Source: an uncultured virus (IMG/VR IMGVR_UViG_2061766007_004243)
Taxonomy: Duplodnaviria; Heunggongvirae; Uroviricota; Caudoviricetes
DNA: 64,000 nucleotides
Strand: one strand, 5' to 3'
IMG/VR virus record: IMGVR_UViG_2061766007_004243
Numbering within the stretch: position 1 is the stretch's first letter; every line of letters begins with the position of its first letter. Made by a program: the position numbers and the translations under genes. Positions 1,499 through 48,225 of this stretch are shown here, piece after piece. A model generated the notes under the pieces. It saw only the letters and a program-made list of their open reading frames with translations. It was not told the DNA's origin and searched no databases.

Positions 1499-3229
1499 CT
1501 ACCCGTTCTGCGCCGCAGTTGATTTTTGGTGCTTAGTAAACAGCTTTTCAAACGCTCGCTGTGTCTTTATCTTTTCAAGCAAATCCCGGTTATTCTGCCG
1601 GGATGTTTCTTTTTCTTCCTGCTCCTTCTCCTGCTCCGGATCATCTATCAGTTCTAAATCATCGAGAGGCAGAAGCTCAAGCTTGTTGTCGACCGACTCC
1701 GGAAACAGGGAAACAAGATCAGGGTCATCGAGATCCAAGTCCAGGTCTTCGAGGTTGAAGTCATCAAGCTTATCCAACGTATCAGCGCTCTCCATGACTG
1801 TGCTATCGAAATACTTTGCGTTGATCTGAGGCAGTGGAACAGGTTCCATGCTGCCAAACGGATAGCTGTCTATATCGGCAAGCCTTCCCATGAACGGATA
1901 CAGCCTGCCGCACAGTATCAGCGCTTCGCCTTTCTCCTTGTCAAGTCTCTGAAGCCGGGATATGTTTATCAGCGGGCGGTTATCCTTGTCCGTACCGCAC
2001 AGCGTTTCCAACTCGCTGAGCAGCGCGGTTTCGCGGCTGGTAAGGAAAACCCAGTCGTTGCAGTTGCCGCGGATCGTCTCCGCGTCTTCACCATATTTGC
2101 TCCTGAGCTGGTTCAGGCTCTGGATGATGAGGTAGAATCGGATATTCCGCGAGCGCGCCGCGGAGATCATGCTGCTCATATCAGGGATCGCGGGCAGGTT
2201 TGAGAACTCATCCAGCAGGAAATTGACTCTGACGGGCAGCCTCTTTCCATCGCTTTCCTGCGCCGCATGGATCAGTCTCTCATAACACTGTTTTATAAAT
2301 ACTGAAACCAGTCTGTGCAAGGTCGTTTTCTCGTCCGGCATAATGATGTACACGACCGTTTTTTCCATGCCGACATCTGAGAAATCGATATCATTGACCG
2401 ATAGCATATCCTGCAGCGCTTTACGGCTGTACAGGAACTGCACGCCGGCTTTATAGCTGACTATAATATTACTTGTTGTCCTTTCCGCACCGCAAAGCAC
2501 GGATTCGAGGTTTATCCTGGCCAGTGAGTCTGGACTGTAATGCTTGATCATCTCCCGCGCGCACGATTTCCTGTCCACGCAGGACACATCTTCCGCATCC
2601 AGGTTCTCGCTCAGCTTCTGTACGGCGCGCAGGCTTATCTCCGGGAAAACATCCGTTTTTTCTATAAGCATCTCGCATAAGCTTTCGAACAAGGTGCGCG
2701 CGGTATTGTCCCAGAACGGGTCTATGCTGTGCCCTGAAGCAGAAAAGAATGCCCTTGCAAGATCGTTGATGATGCTTACCGCGTCATCCATTTCTCCCAT
2801 TTTCACGTACCGTGCCGCTTCGTACAGCGGATTCCATCCGTGCGAGCGCCTTGGGTCCCGCAGATTGAGCACTTTGATGTTATATCCCTCAGAGGCATAC
2901 AGACCGCTCGTGCGCTCGTACAGTTCGCCCTTGGGGTCGGTACATATGACCGATTCGCCTGCCCGTGCGATCATCTGCATCATGGGCATGGCCAGCAGGC
3001 GGGATTTCTTGCTGCCTGTCGACCCGATGATCAGTCCGTGGGAATCATCGCCATTAACATAGGCGGTCTGGCCGTCGCTTATCAGCGGAAGCCCCGCGGC
3101 GGGATAATGCGCTTCGCTCATGTCGACTTTGACCAGGCGCTGCATAAGCTCGGTCTCATCCGCCCAGCGCGCGCCTGAGTAAGTGTCTTTGCTGTCGTAT
3201 CTGTAAGACTCATAACTCATACCATTCAA
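1499..3229 (-). CDS. VirD4/TraG/TraD-like P-loop ATPase without N-terminal membrane anchor
   Basis: GSTGSKKSR Walker A variant, TDPKGELY, SHGWNPL, DPFW, FLLDEFSNLP Walker B, SAARSRNIRF..QSLNQL typical of coupling proteins; acidic C-terminal tail. Confidence 0.85.
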   Translation of the reverse strand: MNGMSYESYRYDSKDTYSGARWADETELMQRLVKVDMSEAHYPAAGLPLISDGQTAYVNGDDSHGLIIGSTGSKKSRLLAMPMMQMIARAGESVICTDPKGELYERTSGLYASEGYNIKVLNLRDPRRSHGWNPLYEAARYVKMGEMDDAVSIINDLARAFFSASGHSIDPFWDNTARTLFESLCEMLIEKTDVFPEISLRAVQKLSENLDAEDVSCVDRKSCAREMIKHYSPDSLARINLESVLCGAERTTSNIIVSYKAGVQFLYSRKALQDMLSVNDIDFSDVGMEKTVVYIIMPDEKTTLHRLVSVFIKQCYERLIHAAQESDGKRLPVRVNFLLDEFSNLPAIPDMSSMISAARSRNIRFYLIIQSLNQLRSKYGEDAETIRGNCNDWVFLTSRETALLSELETLCGTDKDNRPLINISRLQRLDKEKGEALILCGRLYPFMGRLADIDSYPFGSMEPVPLPQINAKYFDSTVMESADTLDKLDDFNLEDLDLDLDDPDLVSLFPESVDNKLELLPLDDLELIDDPEQEKEQEEKETSRQNNRDLLEKIKTQRAFEKLFTKHQKSTAAQNG

Positions 3230-5197: not shown

Positions 5198-5911
5198 ATG
5201 ATTTATGTAACTTCTGATCTGCATGGTTATCCTATGCCGGATTTCATGCGTTTGTTGGACAAAGCGAAGTTTTCTGATACTGATGACCTTATCGTTCTTG
5301 GAGACGTGATCGATCGCAACGGCGATGGAGGTGTTTCTATCCTGCGCTGGTTGCTTCAGCAGGTGAATGTCCGAATGATAATGGGAAATCATGAAGCAAT
5401 GCTATTAGCATGCCGGTTCTTATTTGATAATATAACCGATGAAAGCCTCAGCCGGTTGAATGAATACAAAATGCGGTTATTGTCAACCTGGATGATGAAC
5501 GGCGCGGAACCGACACTTAAGGCGTTGAGAGAGCTGTTTCATGAAGACGAAGAAACCGCACGTGAGATACTTGAATATCTCGATGAAGCTCCTTTTTATG
5601 AAGTGATTGAGTCGCCAACAAAACAGTATTTGCTGGTCCACTCCGGATTGGGTAATTTCTCCAGGGAAAAACGTTTATCCGAGTATACACCTGACGAATT
5701 GTTATGGACACGTCCAGAGCCTTACCAGATGTATTATCAAAAGACAGTGACCATATTGGGGCATACCCCGACTGAGTATTACGGTTCCACATATGCTGGG
5801 AAAATGATGAAAACCCCGACATGGATCGATATCGATACCGGGGCGGCTTATGGGGAACCGCCAATGCTTCTGCGCCTGGATGATGAACGACCTTTTTATC
5901 TGGATCGATAA
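5198..5911 (+). CDS. Calcineurin-like metallophosphoesterase (PrpA/lambda-type Ser/Thr phosphatase)
   Basis: DLHG, GDVIDR, GNHE, VHSG, GHTP, IDIDTG motifs. Confidence 0.92.
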   Translation: MIYVTSDLHGYPMPDFMRLLDKAKFSDTDDLIVLGDVIDRNGDGGVSILRWLLQQVNVRMIMGNHEAMLLACRFLFDNITDESLSRLNEYKMRLLSTWMMNGAEPTLKALRELFHEDEETAREILEYLDEAPFYEVIESPTKQYLLVHSGLGNFSREKRLSEYTPDELLWTRPEPYQMYYQKTVTILGHTPTEYYGSTYAGKMMKTPTWIDIDTGAAYGEPPMLLRLDDERPFYLDR

Positions 5912-6075
5912 GATCGTTCATCCTTGGTTATTGTTGATCATCATTGATAAGATATAGGATAAATGAGGGAGACACGCGTCTATTAATTTACTTCTTATAT
6001 ACTTGCCTTAAATCCATTTATTGTATACTATCGATGATGTGCCAACTCGTCGCATAACTGCGGGATACAAGTCGT

Positions 6076-6117
6076 CAACAAAACTGACCCAGGACAGTCC
6101 TCCGGTCAGTTTTGTTG
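6076..6117. terminator. Bidirectional terminator-like hairpin between convergent genes
   Basis: caacaaaactgacc / ggtcagttttgttg perfect 14-bp inverted repeat. Confidence 0.7.
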
Positions 6118-23484: not shown

Positions 23485-24355
23485 ATGTTCGAAAAAGTGA
23501 ATCCATCCCATCCCGACAAGATCGCTGACCGCATCGCCGGCGCGCTGGTGGACATGGCGTACAGAAAGGCCCGGAATCCGCGTATCGCAGTCGAGGTACT
23601 GATCGGTCACGGCGTGTGCCACATCATTTGCGAGACTTCGGTCAGACTGCCGGAAAAGGAAGTGTACCGGACAGTACGGCGTATCGCCGGTGATGTGTAC
23701 GTGGACCTCAGGCAGCTGCCTCAGGACGCACAGCTCGCAGAAAACCAGTCGCGCGGTCTGCGCTGCGGGGACAACGGTATTTTTCGGGGCATGCCCGTGA
23801 CCGCTGAGCAGAAGAAGCTCTCACGGATCGCTAGGCGGATTTACGAGCAGTTTCCATATGACGGAAAGTACATACTCGACGGTGACAGGCTGATAATCTG
23901 CCAGAGCAATGCCAGATCAAGGGACTTGCAGCGCATGTTCCACTCGGCCGAGATCAATCCCCTGGGTGACTGGACCGGCGGCACCGATGTGGACACCGGC
24001 GCGGTCAACCGGAAGCTCGGCAGTGACATGGGCGATTCCGTCACCGGCGGCGGACTGCACGGTAAAGACCTCTCCAAAGCCGACGTGAGCGTGAACATCT
24101 ACGCCTGGCTCAAGGCGCAGCTGATCCAGGAGCCTGTTGAGATCTCCTGCGCCATCGGAGATGAGATCGTGGACGGGCTGCCATACGAAATNNNNNNNNN
24201 NACAGATCACGGAAGAACCCGTGGAAATCTCCTGCGCCATCGGAGATGAGATCGTGGACGGGCTGCCATACGAAATGATCGTGAGAATAGCCCGCAGGTA
24301 CATCGAACACGTCGGCGGATTTGAGAAGTTCGCCGAGTGGGGACTGATCAGATGA
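23485..24355 (+). CDS. metK: Short phage-type S-adenosylmethionine synthetase (split by gap, C-terminus duplicated)
   Basis: HPDKIADRI, GDNG, DGK, INPLG.W.GG...DTG, GGGLHGKDLSKADVS. Confidence 0.85.
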
Positions 24356-30651: not shown

Positions 30652-30900
30652 TCAGAGCGTGTATCCGTATAAGTCAGCCATGTCGAGCGCTTCGACGGCG
30701 TAGTCTTCCGGGTCGATGAAGGGATTCCAGTCGTACAGTTCGACCTTGTCGATTTGCGAGCCCACACAGTCTTCGATGAATTCAGCCCGGGCTTCTGTGT
30801 CCGGGAACCGTATGGCCCCGTCTTCTTCCAACTGTGCCACGGCATCCTCGAAACCGGATCGGATGTCGTCCTCGGTGATGACGGTGATGTACTTCTTCAT
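30652..30900 (-). CDS. Small acidic hypothetical protein (82 aa, MKKYI..., cassette B)
   Basis: Homolog of 42303..42551; hairpin-SD leader. Confidence 0.8.
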   Translation of the reverse strand: MKKYITVITEDDIRSGFEDAVAQLEEDGAIRFPDTEARAEFIEDCVGSQIDKVELYDWNPFIDPEDYAVEALDMADLYGYTL

Positions 30901-30948
30901 GGGGTGTATTCCTTTCCGGGCGTTTCACCCTGTGTTTTTCTGCGGCTT

Positions 30949-31008
30949 CCCGCGACCGGGTACTGTGCCCGGTTTCGGCCGGTTGCCGACCGGCGCTCGT
31001 CAGGCGGG
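30949..31008 (-). ncRNA. Type I hammerhead ribozyme (allele with 1-nt bulge in stem II)
   Basis: cccgc-CUGACGA-g(c)gccgg/ccggcc-GAAA-ccggg/cccgg-UC-gcggg. Confidence 0.85.
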
Positions 31009-31083
31009 GGTGGCCGTCCGGCCTCAGCCGGCCCGGCGCTGTGTCTCGGCCCCGTTGCGCCATGCGGCGTTGCNNNNNNNNNN

Positions 31084-40364: not shown

Positions 40365-40600
40365 TCAGAATGGCATGTCAGTGTACGCGGGCATGTAACT
40401 CAGGTTACTGTAGAGCAGCCCGTCTTCATTTACGAACCTTCCGACTGTGGCAATGTAGCCTTTGCCATCCATGATCGCGAACTTGGACAGCGCCAGTTTG
40501 TATATGAGCTCCAGCCTTCGCTCATCCTTAAGGTCAGATGGTCGTCTGATGATCCGTGTCAGGTAATCCGTAATGAATATGGCGGTGTCGCTGTACTCCC
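40365..40600 (-). CDS. Class II glutamine amidotransferase, copy 3, C-terminal fragment
   Basis: EYSDTAIFITDYL...DMPF. Confidence 0.8.
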
Positions 40601-40610
40601 NNNNNNNNNN

Positions 40611-41717
40611 CCAAGTGGTAGCCAAGACACTGCCCACCAACACACTCGGAGACGGAGCCCGGGTGGAGCACACCGGCGGTTCCTACGACACTTGGACGGT
40701 AACGGGTATAGACGGACGGAAGTGGAAACTCATGAGCGACGCCAGCATCGAGGGACCTTTTGAACAACGCACCGAGTTCGTGACCCCCATCTGCCGCTGG
40801 GAAGACATCGAGACGGTACAGGCCATAATCCGGGCTTTGCGGGAAGCCGGGGCACAGGCACACTCCTCCTGCGGCATCCACGTACACATCGGACTGGGTC
40901 AGCATACGCCCAAGACCCTCAGGAACTTGGTGAACATAGTAAACGCCAAGGAAGACCTTCTGACCCAAGCCCTGCAGATAAGCCCGGAACGCCGGGAACG
41001 CTGGTGCCAAGAGGTAGACCCATACTTCCTGCAGGTACTCAACAGGAGAAGGCCGACCACATCCGAACAGCTGGCGCAACTTTGGTATGACGACCGGGAC
41101 TGGGAGTACCACGCTCACGACCATTATGACCGGAGCCGCTACCACCTGCTGAACCTGCATGCGGTGTGGCAGAAAGGCACCATCGAGTTCCGGGCTTTCA
41201 ACAGCACGCTCCACGCCGGGGAGATTAAAGCCTACATACAGCTTTGCATGGCCATAAGCCATCAGGCCCTCACGGTAAGCACAGCGAGCCCCACGAGGCC
41301 GGTGACGGACAACCCCGCATACACCTTCCGGTGCTGGCTCCTCAGGCTGGGGCTNNNNNNNNNNCACGATTGAATTCCGGGCTTTCAACAGCACGCTCCA
41401 CGCCGGGGAGATTAAAGCCTACATACAGCTTTGCATGGCCATAAGCCACCAAGCCCTGACGGTAAGCACAGCGAGCCCCACACGGCCGGTCACGGACAAC
41501 CCCGCATACACCTTCCGGTGCTGGCTCCTCCGACTTGGGCTGAACGGCGAGGAGTTCAAGACCGCCCGGACGCACCTGCTCAAGCACCTGCCCGGCAACG
41601 CCGCNNNNNNNNNNGAACGGCGAGGAATTCAAGACCGCCCGGACACACCTTTTAAAGCACCTGCCCGGCAACGCCGCATGGCGCAACGGGGCCGAGACAC
41701 AGCGCCGGGCCGGCTAA
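40611..41717 (+). CDS. Putative amidoligase (COOH-NH2 ligase type 2), three overlapping fragments
   Basis: WKLMSDASI, EFVTP, SCGIHVHI, RYHLLNL, GTIEFRAFNST, FRCWLLRLG; stop TAA at 41717. Confidence 0.88.
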
Positions 41718-41754
41718 GGCCCGGTGGCCGGGAAGGACGGCCCCATGGAACACA

Positions 41755-41813
41755 CCCGCCTGACGAGGCCGGAGGGCGACCGGCCGAAACCGGGCACAGT
41801 ACCCGGTCGCGGG
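41755..41813 (+). ncRNA. Type I hammerhead ribozyme
   Basis: cccgc-CUGACGA-ggccgg(agggcga)ccggcc-GAAA-ccggg(cacagua)cccgg-UC-gcggg; predicted cut after 41808. Confidence 0.92.
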
Positions 41814-41915
41814 AAGCCGCAGAAAAACNNNNNNNNNNTGCCGAGACACAGCGCAGGGCCGGCTGAGCCGGCCGGGCACACTGAGATGAGCGAGGTGACC
41901 GAATGGAACACACTG

Positions 41916-41974
41916 CCCGCCTGACGAGGCCGGACGGCGACCGGCCGAAACCGGGCACACTACCCGGTCGCGGG
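41916..41974 (+). ncRNA. Type I hammerhead ribozyme (second allele)
   Basis: Same core and stems, loops acggcga and cacacua; predicted cut after 41969. Confidence 0.92.
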
Positions 41975-42021
41975 AAGCCGCACACAATTACACAGGGCGA
42001 AAGCCCGGAAAGGAACACACC

Positions 42022-42255
42022 ATGTTTGACAACTACGAGGACAACTTCAGCGACGAGGCACAGTTTGACGAAACGACCCTGCAGAACGGGCTCATGGAGC
42101 TCATGAGCTACGGCTACGACAGCTCTGAAATCTGCTGGGAGAACCTGCGGGTGCGCACATACGAGGAGGCCGGGGTAATGACCTACGATAAGGGGCTTGT
42201 CATAACCACACCGGACGGTCAGGAATTCCAGCTGACCATCGTTAGGAGCATGTAA
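42022..42255 (+). CDS. Small acidic hypothetical protein (77 aa, cassette A)
   Basis: VRTYEEAGVMTYDKGLVI...DGQEFQLTIV; hairpin-SD leader. Confidence 0.8.
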   Translation: MFDNYEDNFSDEAQFDETTLQNGLMELMSYGYDSSEICWENLRVRTYEEAGVMTYDKGLVITTPDGQEFQLTIVRSM

Positions 42256-42302
42256 GGCTCCCAAATCAAGCAGGGCGCACAGCCCGGAAAGGAACACACA
42301 CC

Positions 42303-42551
42303 ATGAAGAAGTACATCGCCGTCATCACCGAGGATGACATCCGCTCCGGTTTCGAGGAAGCCGTGGCACAGCTGGAAGAAGACGGAGCCATCAGGTTCCC
42401 GGATACAGAATCCCGCACAGAGTTCATAAACGACTGCGTGAGCTGTGAAATCGACAGGTACGAGCTTTACGAGAGCGACCCATTCGCACACAGGCCGGAC
42501 TACGCCGTTGCGGTATTGGATATGGCCGGACTGTACGGATACACGCTCTGA
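42303..42551 (+). CDS. Small acidic hypothetical protein (82 aa, cassette B)
   Basis: Homolog of 30652..30900. Confidence 0.8.
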   Translation: MKKYIAVITEDDIRSGFEEAVAQLEEDGAIRFPDTESRTEFINDCVSCEIDRYELYESDPFAHRPDYAVAVLDMAGLYGYTL

Positions 42552-42589
42552 AATCAAGCAGGGCATCATGCCCGGAAAGGATACACACC

Positions 42590-42835
42590 ATGAAGTTCAT
42601 GGATCTTAACGACCGCAGGACTTACACACTCTCTGAAATCAAGAGGGACTGGTCACAACTCCGGAATCAGGAACCGGAGAATCACGCTCCTGATTTCAAG
42701 ACTGAGCTCTTCGAGATACTCATGGCCACAGTCAACGGCAGGAACGACCTCGAGGTCATCGGCCTCACACACAGGGAGACCGACAGGATCATCCGCCGCC
42801 TTCGCGCACAGCTGCTGAATCAGGCAGACCGTTGA
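42590..42835 (+). CDS. Small hypothetical protein (81 aa, cassette C)
   Basis: Homolog of 30092..30334. Confidence 0.8.
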   Translation: MKFMDLNDRRTYTLSEIKRDWSQLRNQEPENHAPDFKTELFEILMATVNGRNDLEVIGLTHRETDRIIRRLRAQLLNQADR

Positions 42836-42837
42836 CA

Positions 42838-42914
42838 CACGGGCACGCCGCTTAAGCGGCCCCGGCTGAGGGCTCACGAATCGAGCTGAGCCTTCACCCG
42901 GAGCCACTGGCTCA
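42838..42914 (+). ncRNA. Conserved three-hairpin intergenic RNA candidate
   Basis: gccgc-ttaa-gcggc; ccgg.tgagggct/agccttca.ccgg; agcc-act-ggct. Confidence 0.55.
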
Positions 42915-42946
42915 CGTATCTTTCAAATCAAGGAGGACACTCACAC

Positions 42947-43518
42947 ATGTGCATCATCTGCGTATCANNNNNNNNNNTCGCACCATGTTCCTCAGGAATC
43001 CCCACGGAGCCGGTTACATGTTCGCACGCAACGGGAAAGTACATATCCGCAAGGGCTTCATGAACCTCACCGCGCTTTCAAATGCGCTAAAGGTTGAGAA
43101 GTTCACGGACAACGACCCGGTCGTCTACCATTTCCGCATCAGCACGCAAGCGGGCATCAACCCCCAGATGACGCATCCGTTCCCGCTCTCAAATCAGCCG
43201 GCGCACATGAAAGCGCTGGATGTTGACTGCAGGTGTGGGATAGCGCACAACGGGATAATCGACATAACCACTGACCCGCGCAATCGTGAGTACAGCGACA
43301 CGGCCATATTCATTACGGATTACCTGACACGGATCATACGCAGACCGTCCGACCTTAAGGATGAACGGAGACTGGAGCTCATATACAAACTGGCCCAGTC
43401 CAAGTTCGCCATCATGGACGGCAAAGGCTACATTGCCACAATCGGAAGGTTCATAGATGAAGACGGACTTCTGTACAGCAACCTGAGCTACATACCCGCA
43501 TACGACTTACCGTTCTGA
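42947..43518 (+). CDS. Class II glutamine amidotransferase, copy 4 (gap near 5' end)
   Basis: AAGGAGG SD then ATG-TGC (MCIICV, N-terminal nucleophile Cys); NPHGAG, HFR, HNG. Confidence 0.9.
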
Positions 43519-45545: not shown

Positions 45546-47124
45546 CTAAGCTGTACAATGGGAGGGCAATGGCCTGACGAATTCCTCCAAGAGCATCACG
45601 CTCGTTTGGAAGTCAGTCAGCCGGCCTTCCCGTTGTGCAGCGTTCGATTTGTGCAGGTAGAGCACCCATAAGGGGCACTCGAGTCAGCGAACAGATAGAA
45701 TCGGCGATGGGTAAAGGCGGTTCGCCATTGTANNNNNNNNNNCAACACATCGGGAGGATTCAACATGTTCGCAGTAGGAGTCGATGTTTCCAACGGCAGA
45801 AGCACAGTCGCTGTACTTGGAGCCAGGAGAACAGTGGTGGTGAGGCCGTATGAGGTTCCACACACAGCGGATGGTTTTGCCGAGCTGACGGCAAGGCTCA
45901 ATGATCTGGATGGCGAGGTCAGGATCGTCATGGAGCATACCGGGCGGTACTATGAATCGTTAGCCATGAGTATGTACCGGGCAGGCTTCTTTGTGTCTGC
46001 CGTGAACCCTCTGGCTATCAAGGATTACCAGGAGGGGATCAGCGTCCGGAAGGTGAAGACCGACAAAGCAGACGCCCTGAAGATCGCCCAGTTTGCCATT
46101 GACAAATGGGAGATCCTGCCGCAGTATAGTCCCATGGATACGATTCGCTACGACCTCAAGACCATTCACCGGCAGTTCCAGCTGTCCTCCAAGACCAAGA
46201 CCGCGCTGAACAACAATCTGATCGCTCTGTTGGAGCAGAGCTACCCCGGCGCGAACAGGTACTTCGACAGCCCGGTCCGGCCGGACGGCAGCCAGAAATG
46301 GGTGGACTTCGCAGACACCTTCTGGCACGTGGACTGTGTGGCCAAGGTCAGCCGAAAGACTTTTACGGAGCGGTACCGGAAGTGGTGCAAGCGTCACGGA
46401 TACAACTTCTCCGAAGCCAAGGCTGTCGAAATTCACGAGGATGCCAGGCAGAAGTTCCCGCTAGTACCCAAGTCCGACACCTGCAAGCTTTTGGTCAAGG
46501 AAGCTGTTAGCCAGCTCAACGCTGTTTCCCGCACGGTGGAAACCTACCGCGCTGAGATGGATCGCCTGGCCTCTCAGCTTCCGGAATACGAGACTGTCAT
46601 GGCCATGACCGGCGTGGGCAAGTCCATGGGACCGCAGTTGATGGCAGAGATCGGCGACCTTCGCCGCTTTGCGCACCAGAAGTCTCTGGTAGGCTTTGCC
46701 GGCACCGATCCGATCAAGGATGATTCCGGCGACAAGGTTTCCGACAGCAANNNNNNNNNNGCGCGGTTCTCCTTACCTTCGCAAGACGCTCTTTGTTATC
46801 ATGACGATCCTGCTGCAGCTTCAGCCCCCGGACGATCCTGTCTACCAGTTCCTGGACAAAAAGCGCTCCGAGGGCAAGCAGTACTATGTGTACATGACTG
46901 CCGGCATGACCAAGTTCCTGCGCATCTACTACGGTAGGGTCCGTGATTGTCTCAAAGAGAAAGGTCTCTGGGAGCAGCCCTCTGTTGATGAGGTCAACCC
47001 TGGTTGACAGGGGTTGGGAACCAACCCCTTGACTGTCCATGAGCATAGACAGCACGACGAGTCAAGGATGCCGTAGGCACGGCCGAAGGCCGCTTGTCCT
47101 TGACGCGGCGGGATGGCTGTGCTA
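45546..47124 (+). mobile_element. IS110-family insertion sequence with long structured left end
   Basis: DEDD recombinase plus ~200-nt structured upstream region; shared CTA core at 45546-45548 and 47122-47124 (ends inferred). Confidence 0.7.
45765..47007 (+). CDS. IS110-family recombinase/transposase (frame broken only at gap 46751-46760)
   Basis: VGVDVS, MEHTG.Y, VNP, KTDKADA, GVG, AEIGD..RF, DSG, RGSPYLR. Confidence 0.92.
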
Positions 47125-47134
47125 NNNNNNNNNN

Positions 47135-47716
47135 CTTGCCGTGCAGGCCGCCGCCGGTGACAGAATCACCCATGTCGCTGCCCAGCTTGCGGTTCACCGC
47201 GCCGGTGTCCACGTCAGTGCCACCGGTCCAGGGTCCCAAAGGATTGACCTCGGCCTTTGGATACAGGTTCTGAATGTGCCTTGTCATGGCGTTGCTCTGG
47301 CATATGACCAGCCTGTCTCCGTCAAGTATGTACTTTCCGTCATAGGGAAACAGCTCGTAAATGCGGCGGGCGATCCTGCTGAGCCGTTTCTGTTCGGCGG
47401 TCACCGGCACGCCCCGGAAGATGCCGTTGTCTCCGCAGCGCAGGCCCTGCTTCTGGTTATCCGCCAGGTGTTCGTCCTGCGGCAGCTGCTTAAGATTCAC
47501 GCGCACGCTGCCGGCTATGCGGCGCACCGCCATGTACACTTCCTTTTCCGGAAGCATGACCGAAGTCTCGCAGATGATGTTGCACACGCCGTGGCCGATG
47601 AGAACTTCAACAGCTATACGCGGATGTGCCGCTTTTCTGTACGCCATGTCTACCAGCGCGCCGGCAATGCGGTCGGCGATTTTGTCAACATGCTGAGGGT
47701 TTACTTTTTCGAACAT
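47135..47716 (-). CDS. metK: Short phage-type SAM synthetase, second copy, 3' end in gap
   Basis: MFEKVNPQHVDKIADRI; homolog of 23485. Confidence 0.85.
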
Positions 47717-48225
47717 ACAGAATACTCCTTGCTTTTTATTCTTCCTCGTTGGAACCCGGTTGCGCACCATCTCTCAACATCTTCTTTATATACATATCTC
47801 TCAAGTATACCATTATTAATCCATCTTCTACGCGCGGTATCAGCTTTGAAAAAAGCACGCAAATCAATGGAAACCTTTCGATTTCGGTTTGCATCCCCAA
47901 TTCTTCGCTTGACAGTTCCATAATTCAAGTTATGAAGATGTGTGCACCACTCAAGATTCTCAACATTATTGTTTTCTTTATTCTCATCAAGGTGATTCAC
48001 TTCTGGAAAATGGTTTGGATTAGGTATAAACGCTTCAGCAACAAGCCTGTGGATCAAATGATTTCTTTTGGAGTTTCTGAGCCATAAGCACACCCTTAGA
48101 TATCCATTTCTTTGGCGATCCCCTTTTAAAACATGTGGTGCCTTTTTGACACTACGAACTTTGCCCGTATTGGAGACTTGATAGTGGCCTTCATAGCCTG
48201 CTACATCTCTCCATTCAGTTTCCAT
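47701..48225 (-). CDS. NUMOD4-HNH homing endonuclease
   Basis: EWRDVAGYEGHYQVSNTGKVRS (NUMOD4); IHRLVAEAF, VNHLDENK.NN...NLEW. Confidence 0.92.
   Translation of the reverse strand: METEWRDVAGYEGHYQVSNTGKVRSVKKAPHVLKGDRQRNGYLRVCLWLRNSKRNHLIHRLVAEAFIPNPNHFPEVNHLDENKENNNVENLEWCTHLHNLNYGTVKRRIGDANRNRKVSIDLRAFFKADTARRRWINNGILERYVYKEDVERWCATGFQRGRIKSKEYSVCSKK

Follow-up and report, generated by a model that had tools for sequence, protein, structure and literature searches.

Hammerhead ribozymes that carry a pseudoknot and flank single genes in prophages have been known since 2011. According to the text of the report by Perreault et al. (PMC3088659), arrays of these ribozymes were proposed to cut long prophage transcripts into gene-length mRNAs, and three prophage arrays cleaved efficiently in vitro. 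The text of a 2019 review (PMC6765202) still calls the function of bacterial and phage hammerheads open. An earlier sequence-only reading of the locus described here had stated that such ribozymes exist and that their function is mostly unknown; the novelty that it implied does not stand, since prophage pseudoknot hammerheads are already described in the 2011 text.

The locus lies in an IMG/VR virus record of 64,000 nucleotides (the whole stretch of DNA analysed, hereafter the window), in which three hammerheads were found. By core, topology, pseudoknot, and setting, they belong to the prophage pseudoknot class of 2011 and fail the Rfam score thresholds only. As in the text of PMC3088659, the core is canonical, a Watson-Crick pseudoknot connects the stem I side with loop II, and the ribozymes separate individual genes within phage polycistronic units, an operon often containing several of them. 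The mutants characterised in detail in that text are of a type II example, whereas the window copies are type I, and neither a covarying product hairpin nor a core UGA used as a stop codon is described in its running text. As hammerheads, the copies in the window are therefore of little significance, being three more members of a class known since 2011. The covarying product hairpin and the frequent core-UGA stop turn a vague idea of mRNA processing into a specific hypothesis that can be tested with mutants.

The Rfam library contains a type I model, RF00163, with 45 positions, and the window hammerheads share its permutation (stem I open), its core, and its three stems. RAGATH-1 (RF03152), which we take to be a pseudoknot-reliant, phage-associated hammerhead variant, is different in that the window copies have full-length stems II and III. 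Three better-studied systems share parts of the logic discussed below. In RiboJ-type synthetic insulators, cutting by the ribozyme gives the mRNA a 5'-OH end, and a hairpin close by provides the ribosome-binding site with its context; the body of the RiboJ ribozyme remains on the downstream RNA, whereas that of the window hammerhead would stay on the upstream RNA. In Firmicutes, a 5'-OH end made by a ribozyme is a known entry point for RNase J1, which attacks the 5'-OH product of glmS in Bacillus, and this is why a 5' hairpin flush with the end would matter; glmS depends on a metabolite, whereas the window hammerhead has no indicated ligand. Between the early genes of phage T7, RNase III sites are cut in the polycistronic message and leave protective hairpins at the ends. 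Those sites need a host enzyme and long duplexes, whereas the window RNA would be its own nuclease, with an end hairpin of 4-6 bp.

Results and Discussion

Architecture of the three hammerhead copies

The interpretation of copies A, B, and C (Table 1) as canonical type I hammerheads is supported by their core, stems, and topology, by an independent phage model, by the covariation of stems I-III and of the pseudoknot, and by synteny; self-cleavage itself is a prediction from the sequence. The core C3-U4-G5-A6-N7-G8-A9 is present as CUGACGA in every copy, starting at 41760 and 41921 on the plus strand and at 31003 on the minus strand, and each copy also has GAAA (with G12-A13-A14), a stem III closed by the A15.1:U16.1 pair, and GUC as the N-U-H triplet. 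Three helices are formed, of which stem I is open and stems II and III are capped, and they covary among relatives. Copy B has the layout of copy A shifted by +161 nt and reads, from its 5' end, CCCGC (stem I), CUGACGA, GGCCGG-ACGGCGA-CCGGCC (stem II with its loop), GAAA, CCGGG-CACACUA-CCCGG (stem III), U-C with C17, GCGGG (stem I), and AAGCCGCACACA. Copy C, the third allele, has UCGGCAA as loop II.

Table 1. Positions of the hammerhead copies and neighbouring features in the window.
Feature	Position	Strand	Remarks
amidoligase gene (Amidoligase_2)	40573-41717	+	Pfam 1.9e-55 for 40573-41373; C-terminal frame by eye
hammerhead copy A	41755-41825	+	type I; C17 = 41808; 12-nt tail; 55.9 bits
copy A, stem I	41755-41759/41809-41813	+	
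copy A, core	41760-41766	+	CUGACGA
copy A, stem II	41767-41772/41780-41785	+	loop II AGGGCGA
copy A, GAAA	41786-41789	+	
copy A, stem III	41789-41794/41802-41807	+	loop III CACAGUA
copy A, predicted cut	after 41808	+	GUC triplet with C17 at 41808
copy A, pseudoknot	41816-41818 with 41775-41777	+	tail GCC with loop II GGC; 3 bp
copy A, alternative hairpin	41809-41820	+	GCGG(GAAG)CCGC
10-N run	41829-41838	.	separates copy A from copy B; flanking pieces re-cover one locus
hammerhead copy B	41916-41986	+	type I; C17 = 41969; 56.9 bits
copy B, stem I, 5' strand	41916-41920	+	CCCGC
copy B, predicted cut	after 41969	+	
copy B, pseudoknot	41977-41980 with 41935-41938	+	tail GCCG with loop II CGGC; 4 bp
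copy B, alternative hairpin	41970-41981	+	GCGG(GAAG)CCGC
leader of downstream gene	41993-42024	+	hairpin GGGC-GAAA-GCCC; purine-rich ribosome-binding stretch GGAAAGGAA; ATG 42022
77-aa ORF downstream of copy B	42022-42255	+	
hammerhead copy C (third allele)	30937-31008	-	C17 = 30954; bulged C in stem II; 54.3 bits
copy C, alternative hairpin	30953-30942	-	GCGG(GAAG)CCGC

The core nucleotides are identical in the three copies and complete, as the sequence-only reading had claimed, and the cleavage positions that it gave, 41808 and 41969, coincide with the C17 that we placed from the sequence as predicted sites. The third allele to which it referred does exist, outside 41755-41974 and on the minus strand (31008-30937). 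Its description of three perfect stems is correct for copies A and B and fails for copy C, in which stem II contains one bulged C. Likewise, differences between the alleles do fall in loops II and III, as had been stated, and one falls in a stem, namely this stem II bulge; the spacers differ as well. Loop II had been described as complementary to the AAGCCG tail, and we found the pairing to be kept by compensatory change, with GGC facing GCC in copy A and CGGC facing GCCG in copy B.

The amidoligase junction and the assembly of the window

The ribozyme had been placed just downstream of the amidoligase stop, and we found all copies at this same junction, which is also occupied in a Christensenellales phage. 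When 41839-42300 was compared with phage records by blastn, this phage (PV036454.1, Ca. Heliusvirales, 61.9-kb genome) was the one record found, with 74.6% identity over the ribozyme and the leader, and the end of its amidoligase is homologous to the C-terminal end of the amidoligase in the window. Copy C is preceded by the same amidoligase 3' end (TGA at 31026-31024, minus strand) and followed by a different small gene (ATG at 30900). The spacers from stop to ribozyme are 37, 49, and 15 nt long in copies A, B, and C, respectively, and show no relation to one another on alignment, which bears out the earlier observation that the ribozyme is retained between unrelated spacers. The start codon expected about 50 nt past the predicted cut lies 52-53 nt past it.

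Taken at face value, the window has copies A and B on one strand at a distance of 161 nt, and they could pass for a true tandem pair that excises an RNA of ~161 nt, perhaps circular, as in viroid-like or retrozyme elements. We rejected this reading as highly improbable on account of the N runs, the re-coverage of the locus, and a bridging contig. The scaffold that makes up the window contains 53 N runs, mostly 10 long (e.g., 41605-41614, 41829-41838, and 31074-31083); the amidoligase gene is broken by such runs at 40601-40610, 41355-41364, and 41605-41614, and another separates copy A from copy B. Copy A is located on a piece of 214 nt (41615-41828) bracketed by 10-N runs, which repeats the last 63 nt of the preceding piece (the amidoligase C-terminus) with a few differences in the alignment and holds the TAA at 41715-41717. 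Copy B is located on the piece 41839-42967, which begins again inside the amidoligase 3' end and extends into the downstream genes. A public contig runs from the letters of the amidoligase 3' end directly into 41846 onward, linking that end to the copy B piece, and a single ribozyme is present at the junction both in the minus-strand allele and in the related phage. Because one locus is covered repeatedly by the N-separated pieces, we regard copies A and B as serial assembly variants rather than a tandem pair, and most likely there is one ribozyme per genome at the amidoligase junction.

The related amidoligase-hammerhead junction at ~31 kb is inverted and has a different downstream gene, and the record looks like an interleaving of several related phage variants. 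A search of the plasmid collection gave no match.

Detection by Rfam and by a phage family model

With Rfam 15, the whole window gave 0 matches at gathering scores, and 601 nt and 86 nt of it gave no hammerhead family at E<=10, so that the check with the Rfam hammerhead models proposed in the sequence-only reading came out negative at either setting. The Rfam matches in this region of the window, mir-762, P36, and int-alpA, are due to chance only and were discarded. RAGATH-1 had no match in the window and 0 matches at E<=10 in PV036454.1. On the hammerhead of this related phage, RF00163 scored 15.7 bits, below the 34-bit cut-off that marks a curated-model match; the score is far below the cut-off because the model expects short stems, whereas stems II and III are long and GC-rich here and are followed by a tail.

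Since Rfam gave no matches, we built a covariance model, R1, from 74 IMG/VR phage hammerheads with the window excluded. Applied to both strands of the 64 kb with filters off, R1 returned the three copies at 56.9, 55.9, and 54.3 bits (rough E ~1e-15), and the next-best match in the window scored 12 bits; the three hammerhead matches are far above chance. A script scan of both strands of the window for the core and a 4-bp stem II found copies A and B alone. The Rfam thresholds thus miss an abundant subfamily of gut-phage hammerheads with long, GC-rich stems, which R1 or a similar model recovers cleanly, and because the subfamily falls below these thresholds, annotation pipelines under-count it.

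In PV036454.1, R1 found exactly three matches, all within ~1 kb and starting right after the amidoligase. One hammerhead follows the amidoligase stop, the next small gene ends inside the second, and the third comes two genes later; stems II and III differ from those in the window by compensatory changes. Pattern scans of IMG/VR with either stem I or stem II fixed each yielded an estimated ~740 stored stretches with a match, and the IMG/VR relatives have up to five ribozymes within 2 kb. A scan of the genome collection gave ~1000 stretches across many phyla, chance matches included, and was kept out of the statistics, since GC-rich genomes contributed many matches by chance; it contained hammerhead arrays of five or six on Clostridia contigs from the rumen and the sheep gut. 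Such Clostridia contigs and some viral contigs carry at least five hammerheads of the family per 2-5 kb, about one per small gene (L268-L272, L283-L287, and L289-L293 in the genome collection; L076/L077 and L060 in IMG/VR).

Some animal-gut contigs join the 3' half of the hammerhead (stem II onward) to differing 5' halves, with loose ends at 41929 and 41943, and one alternative 5' half has a U-bulged UGGCCCGG stem II. This suggests that the ribozymes recombine as mosaics between related phages.

Covariation of the stems and the pseudoknot

The covariation set comprised 137 R1 matches from 100 sources, giving 130 distinct rows. In this alignment, 93.5% of the paired cells hold a pair, compared with 68.4% after shuffling (0/500 shuffles reach the observed value) and 30-42% with the 3' partners slid. 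By element, the value is 96.6% for stem I, 97.9% for stem II, and 99.0% for stem III, figures that lean towards the stems because the alignment is fitted to those of the model, and 75.4% for the pseudoknot, which lies outside the R1 model and therefore gains nothing from the fit. Changes on both sides are seen in each of the four pseudoknot pairs; the column pair 28/111, for example, occurs as GC (29), UA (28), CG (27), and AU (8). A contiguous pseudoknot of at least 4 bp is found in 74/124 hammerheads, whereas re-partnering of loops and tails leads one to expect 36. When stem II is fixed and stem I is allowed to vary, stem I reaches at least 4 bp in 107 of the 121 unique matches, its variants including CCCGC/GCGGG (48), CCCAC/GUGGG (10), CCCGU/ACGGG (5), and many others.

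These data bear on the reading of the hammerhead as a structured 3' end or spacer for the amidoligase message, or as a decaying relic, with no useful cleavage in vivo. The low scores from the Rfam models are in its favour, as are RNA-library contigs, found among four runs aligned, that bridge the predicted cut site, contigs being unable to show RNA ends; public sequencing runs recorded as RNA account for small shares (0.06-0.12, Logan contigs). Against this reading, the catalytic nucleotides are invariant in the three alleles despite differing flanks and loops and remain so across 137 relatives with covarying stems, and the pseudoknot, which serves only the active fold, also covaries. We consider a 3'-end structure or relic quite improbable.

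Position between genes

In the relatives, the ribozyme recurs between a stop codon and a ribosome-binding site. Among the 71 relatives with an upstream ORF of at least 50 codons, 54 have the upstream stop within the ribozyme or 0-5 nt ahead of it, and 28/71 IMG/VR relatives use the UGA of the CUGA core as this stop; an annotated CDS of PV036454.1 (5704-6009) also ends in the hammerhead-core UGA. Where the core UGA is the stop, the coding sequence takes in stem I and part of the catalytic core, and a terminating ribosome would sit on the ribozyme. The spacers of 15-49 nt in the window are longer than in most relatives, and with its stops this far upstream, no ribosome would overlap the ribozyme there. 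On the other side, a start preceded by a Shine-Dalgarno sequence is present downstream in 100/124 hammerheads, 60 of those 100 having it 31-46 nt past the cut.

The upstream genes are varied. Among 43 upstream ORFs of at least 90 codons in relatives, an amidoligase is found in 2 and no Pfam family in 33; the other families are DUF4942, DUF932, DUF7192, DUF2786/DUF7168, MazE, and DUF7698. We therefore regard the ribozyme as intergenic punctuation of accessory-gene arrays and not as an amidoligase accessory. A specific amidoligase-ribozyme unit, considered as a candidate, was dropped on the 2/43 count.

An alternative hairpin at the predicted new 5' end

The hairpin GCGG-GAAG-CCGC is present in all three copies and begins at the first nucleotide of the predicted 3' cleavage product. 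Its 3' strand overlaps the pseudoknot partner, so that the hairpin cannot coexist with either stem I or the pseudoknot. In the stem-I-fixed set, CCGC follows 3-14 nt after the stem I GCGG in 93/124 hammerheads. With stem I left free, a downstream partner for the first four product nucleotides is present in 70/107. Among the 47 hammerheads with a stem I other than GCGG, 21 have such a partner and only 3 have a literal CCGC; in controls of 1000 trials each, foreign 4-mers gave a mean of 9.6 (max 16) and shuffled tails a mean of 11.1 (max 19). The downstream element tracks stem I, with AUGGG answered by CCCAU (L127), GUGGU by ACCAC (L189), and ACGGG by CCCGU (L181, L220, and L235). In L182 and L218, stem I is CCCGC/GUGGG and contains a G-U pair, and the downstream CCAC complements the 3' strand rather than copying the 5' strand.

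The hairpin is preferentially flush with the cut, being found at offset 0 in 87/135 hammerheads and at offsets 1-4 in 35-43. After dereplication, a flush hairpin remains in 23/44, compared with 11.1 on average and 21 at most in shuffles, these sequences being related to one another. Folding predictions for product nt 1-28 have the first 5 nt paired in 96/124, compared with 29/124 for nt 51-78 and 40/124 for shuffled sequences; the dereplicated counts are 41/62, 17, and 21, respectively. Some members have a hairpin that starts 2-3 nt in, such as GGGAGC-CACA-GCUUCC. Overall, a terminal hairpin is present in about two thirds of the family members and absent from about a third. It is not described in the text of PMC3088659, of PMC10085705, or of the other openly accessible literature searched. 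A covarying terminal hairpin of the 3' product, as predicted here, would be a modest addition to the known class.

The hairpin and the hammerhead compete closely in the folding energies. For RNA ending at stem I, the hammerhead is the minimum-energy fold in copies A and B (-28.9 kcal/mol), but not in copy C, where an alternative register of stem II (-28.2) beats the hammerhead fold (-25.1). Once the 12-nt tail is included, none of the three copies has the hammerhead as its nearest-neighbour minimum-energy fold; in copies A and B, the hammerhead (-30.0) lies 0.6-2.5 kcal/mol above the fold with the alternative hairpin. The 3-4 bp pseudoknot, left out of the nearest-neighbour folds, is worth -2.6 to -5.0 kcal/mol. 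Since the energy gap is about what the pseudoknot is worth, the uncut RNA would be roughly balanced between the two states. In the cut 3' product, only the hairpin state remains possible.

This balance gives rise to the main rival to the model described below, in which the GCGG/CCGC hairpin acts as an OFF state by vying with stem I and the pseudoknot in the uncut RNA. The element would then not cut constitutively but serve as a tunable gate, set for instance by a protein, by a terminating ribosome, or by the speed of transcription. The folds are near-isoenergetic, the minimum-energy fold of all three full-length copies contains the alternative hairpin, and the partner CCGC comes only 4 nt after stem I and would hence be available almost at once; the upstream gene of 28/71 relatives ends in the core UGA, where a terminating ribosome would cover stem I. 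Nevertheless, that the hairpin is preferentially flush with the cut is relevant to a product end and not to a competitor, the window stops are too far upstream for ribosome overlap, and related multi-hammerhead arrays cleaved efficiently during in vitro transcription according to the text of Perreault et al. (2011, PMC3088659). We therefore hold an OFF-state gate to be unlikely as the explanation, and gating and end protection could both be true.

A model for cleavage and refolding

The reading that we prefer, to which we give a probability of roughly 0.7, is that the three copies are variants of a single locus in a Heliusvirales-like phage or prophage of gut Clostridia, at which the hammerhead cuts between the amidoligase and a small accessory gene, the product refolds, and the two messages become separately stable; cleavage and RNA stability are what we infer. 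As a long early or accessory RNA is transcribed, stems II and III would form, followed by stem I (CCCGC/GCGGG) and the pseudoknot. The active fold would then cut itself co-transcriptionally after the C of GUC. The amidoligase message would retain the compact body of the ribozyme and end in a 2',3'-cyclic phosphate, while the downstream message would begin with a 5'-OH, 52-53 nt before its start codon. The first 12 nt of the 3' product (GCGG-GAAG-CCGC) would refold into a hairpin flush with the new end, reusing nucleotides of stem I and the pseudoknot. Such refolding may release the 5' product, make the cut irreversible, and shield the 5' end from 5'-end-dependent decay, leaving each gene as a separately stable message. 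The stabilisation step draws on the general biology of RNase J and RNase E.

A broader form of the idea, which we offer only tentatively, is that these hammerheads are two-state, cut-and-cap modules in which the strand used in stem I and the pseudoknot becomes a flush hairpin, with product release, a block to re-ligation, and protection from nucleases such as RNase J as the possible benefits. If true, it would provide a functional logic for phage hammerheads placed between a stop codon and the next ribosome-binding site, and it could be tested through point mutants of the 4-nt CCGC element. The description of the Heliusvirales (PMC11283538) contains zero mentions of ribozyme or hammerhead in a term look-up.

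Leaders and surrounding genes

A recurrent leader without a ribozyme was also observed, consisting of GCTYCCAAATCAA, a short GC hairpin (GGGC-loop-GCCC), GGAAAGGA, and ATG. It occurs in the window at 42259-42315 (+) and 30378-30320 (-) and in PV036454.1 at 5660-5704 and 6060-6106. The string CAGCTTCCAAATCAA is found directly after many IMG/VR hammerheads and is common to the ribozyme-less leader.

The surroundings of the locus contain phage and mobile-element replication genes, a methylase, an IS110 transposase, and a TraG-like coupling protein. The IS110-family transposase (DEDD_Tnp_IS110 and Transposase_20) is encoded at 45765-46937 (+), a few kb downstream of the ribozyme locus, and the TraG/VirD4-type type IV coupling protein at 1499-3229 (-), at the left end of the window. 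Phage-like replication modules lie at 15-21 kb and 51-62 kb, with AAA_24, helicases, PriCT_2 and AAA_25, DUF3987, DUF2800, and PolA. The scaffold may therefore join a conjugative element with one or more phages. Two ORFs, 23485-24249 (+) and 46994-47770 (-), weakly match the N-terminal domain of S-adenosylmethionine synthetase (41.3 and 31.6 bits, respectively; cut-off 33.1) and may be SAM-related accessory genes of phages or fragments thereof.
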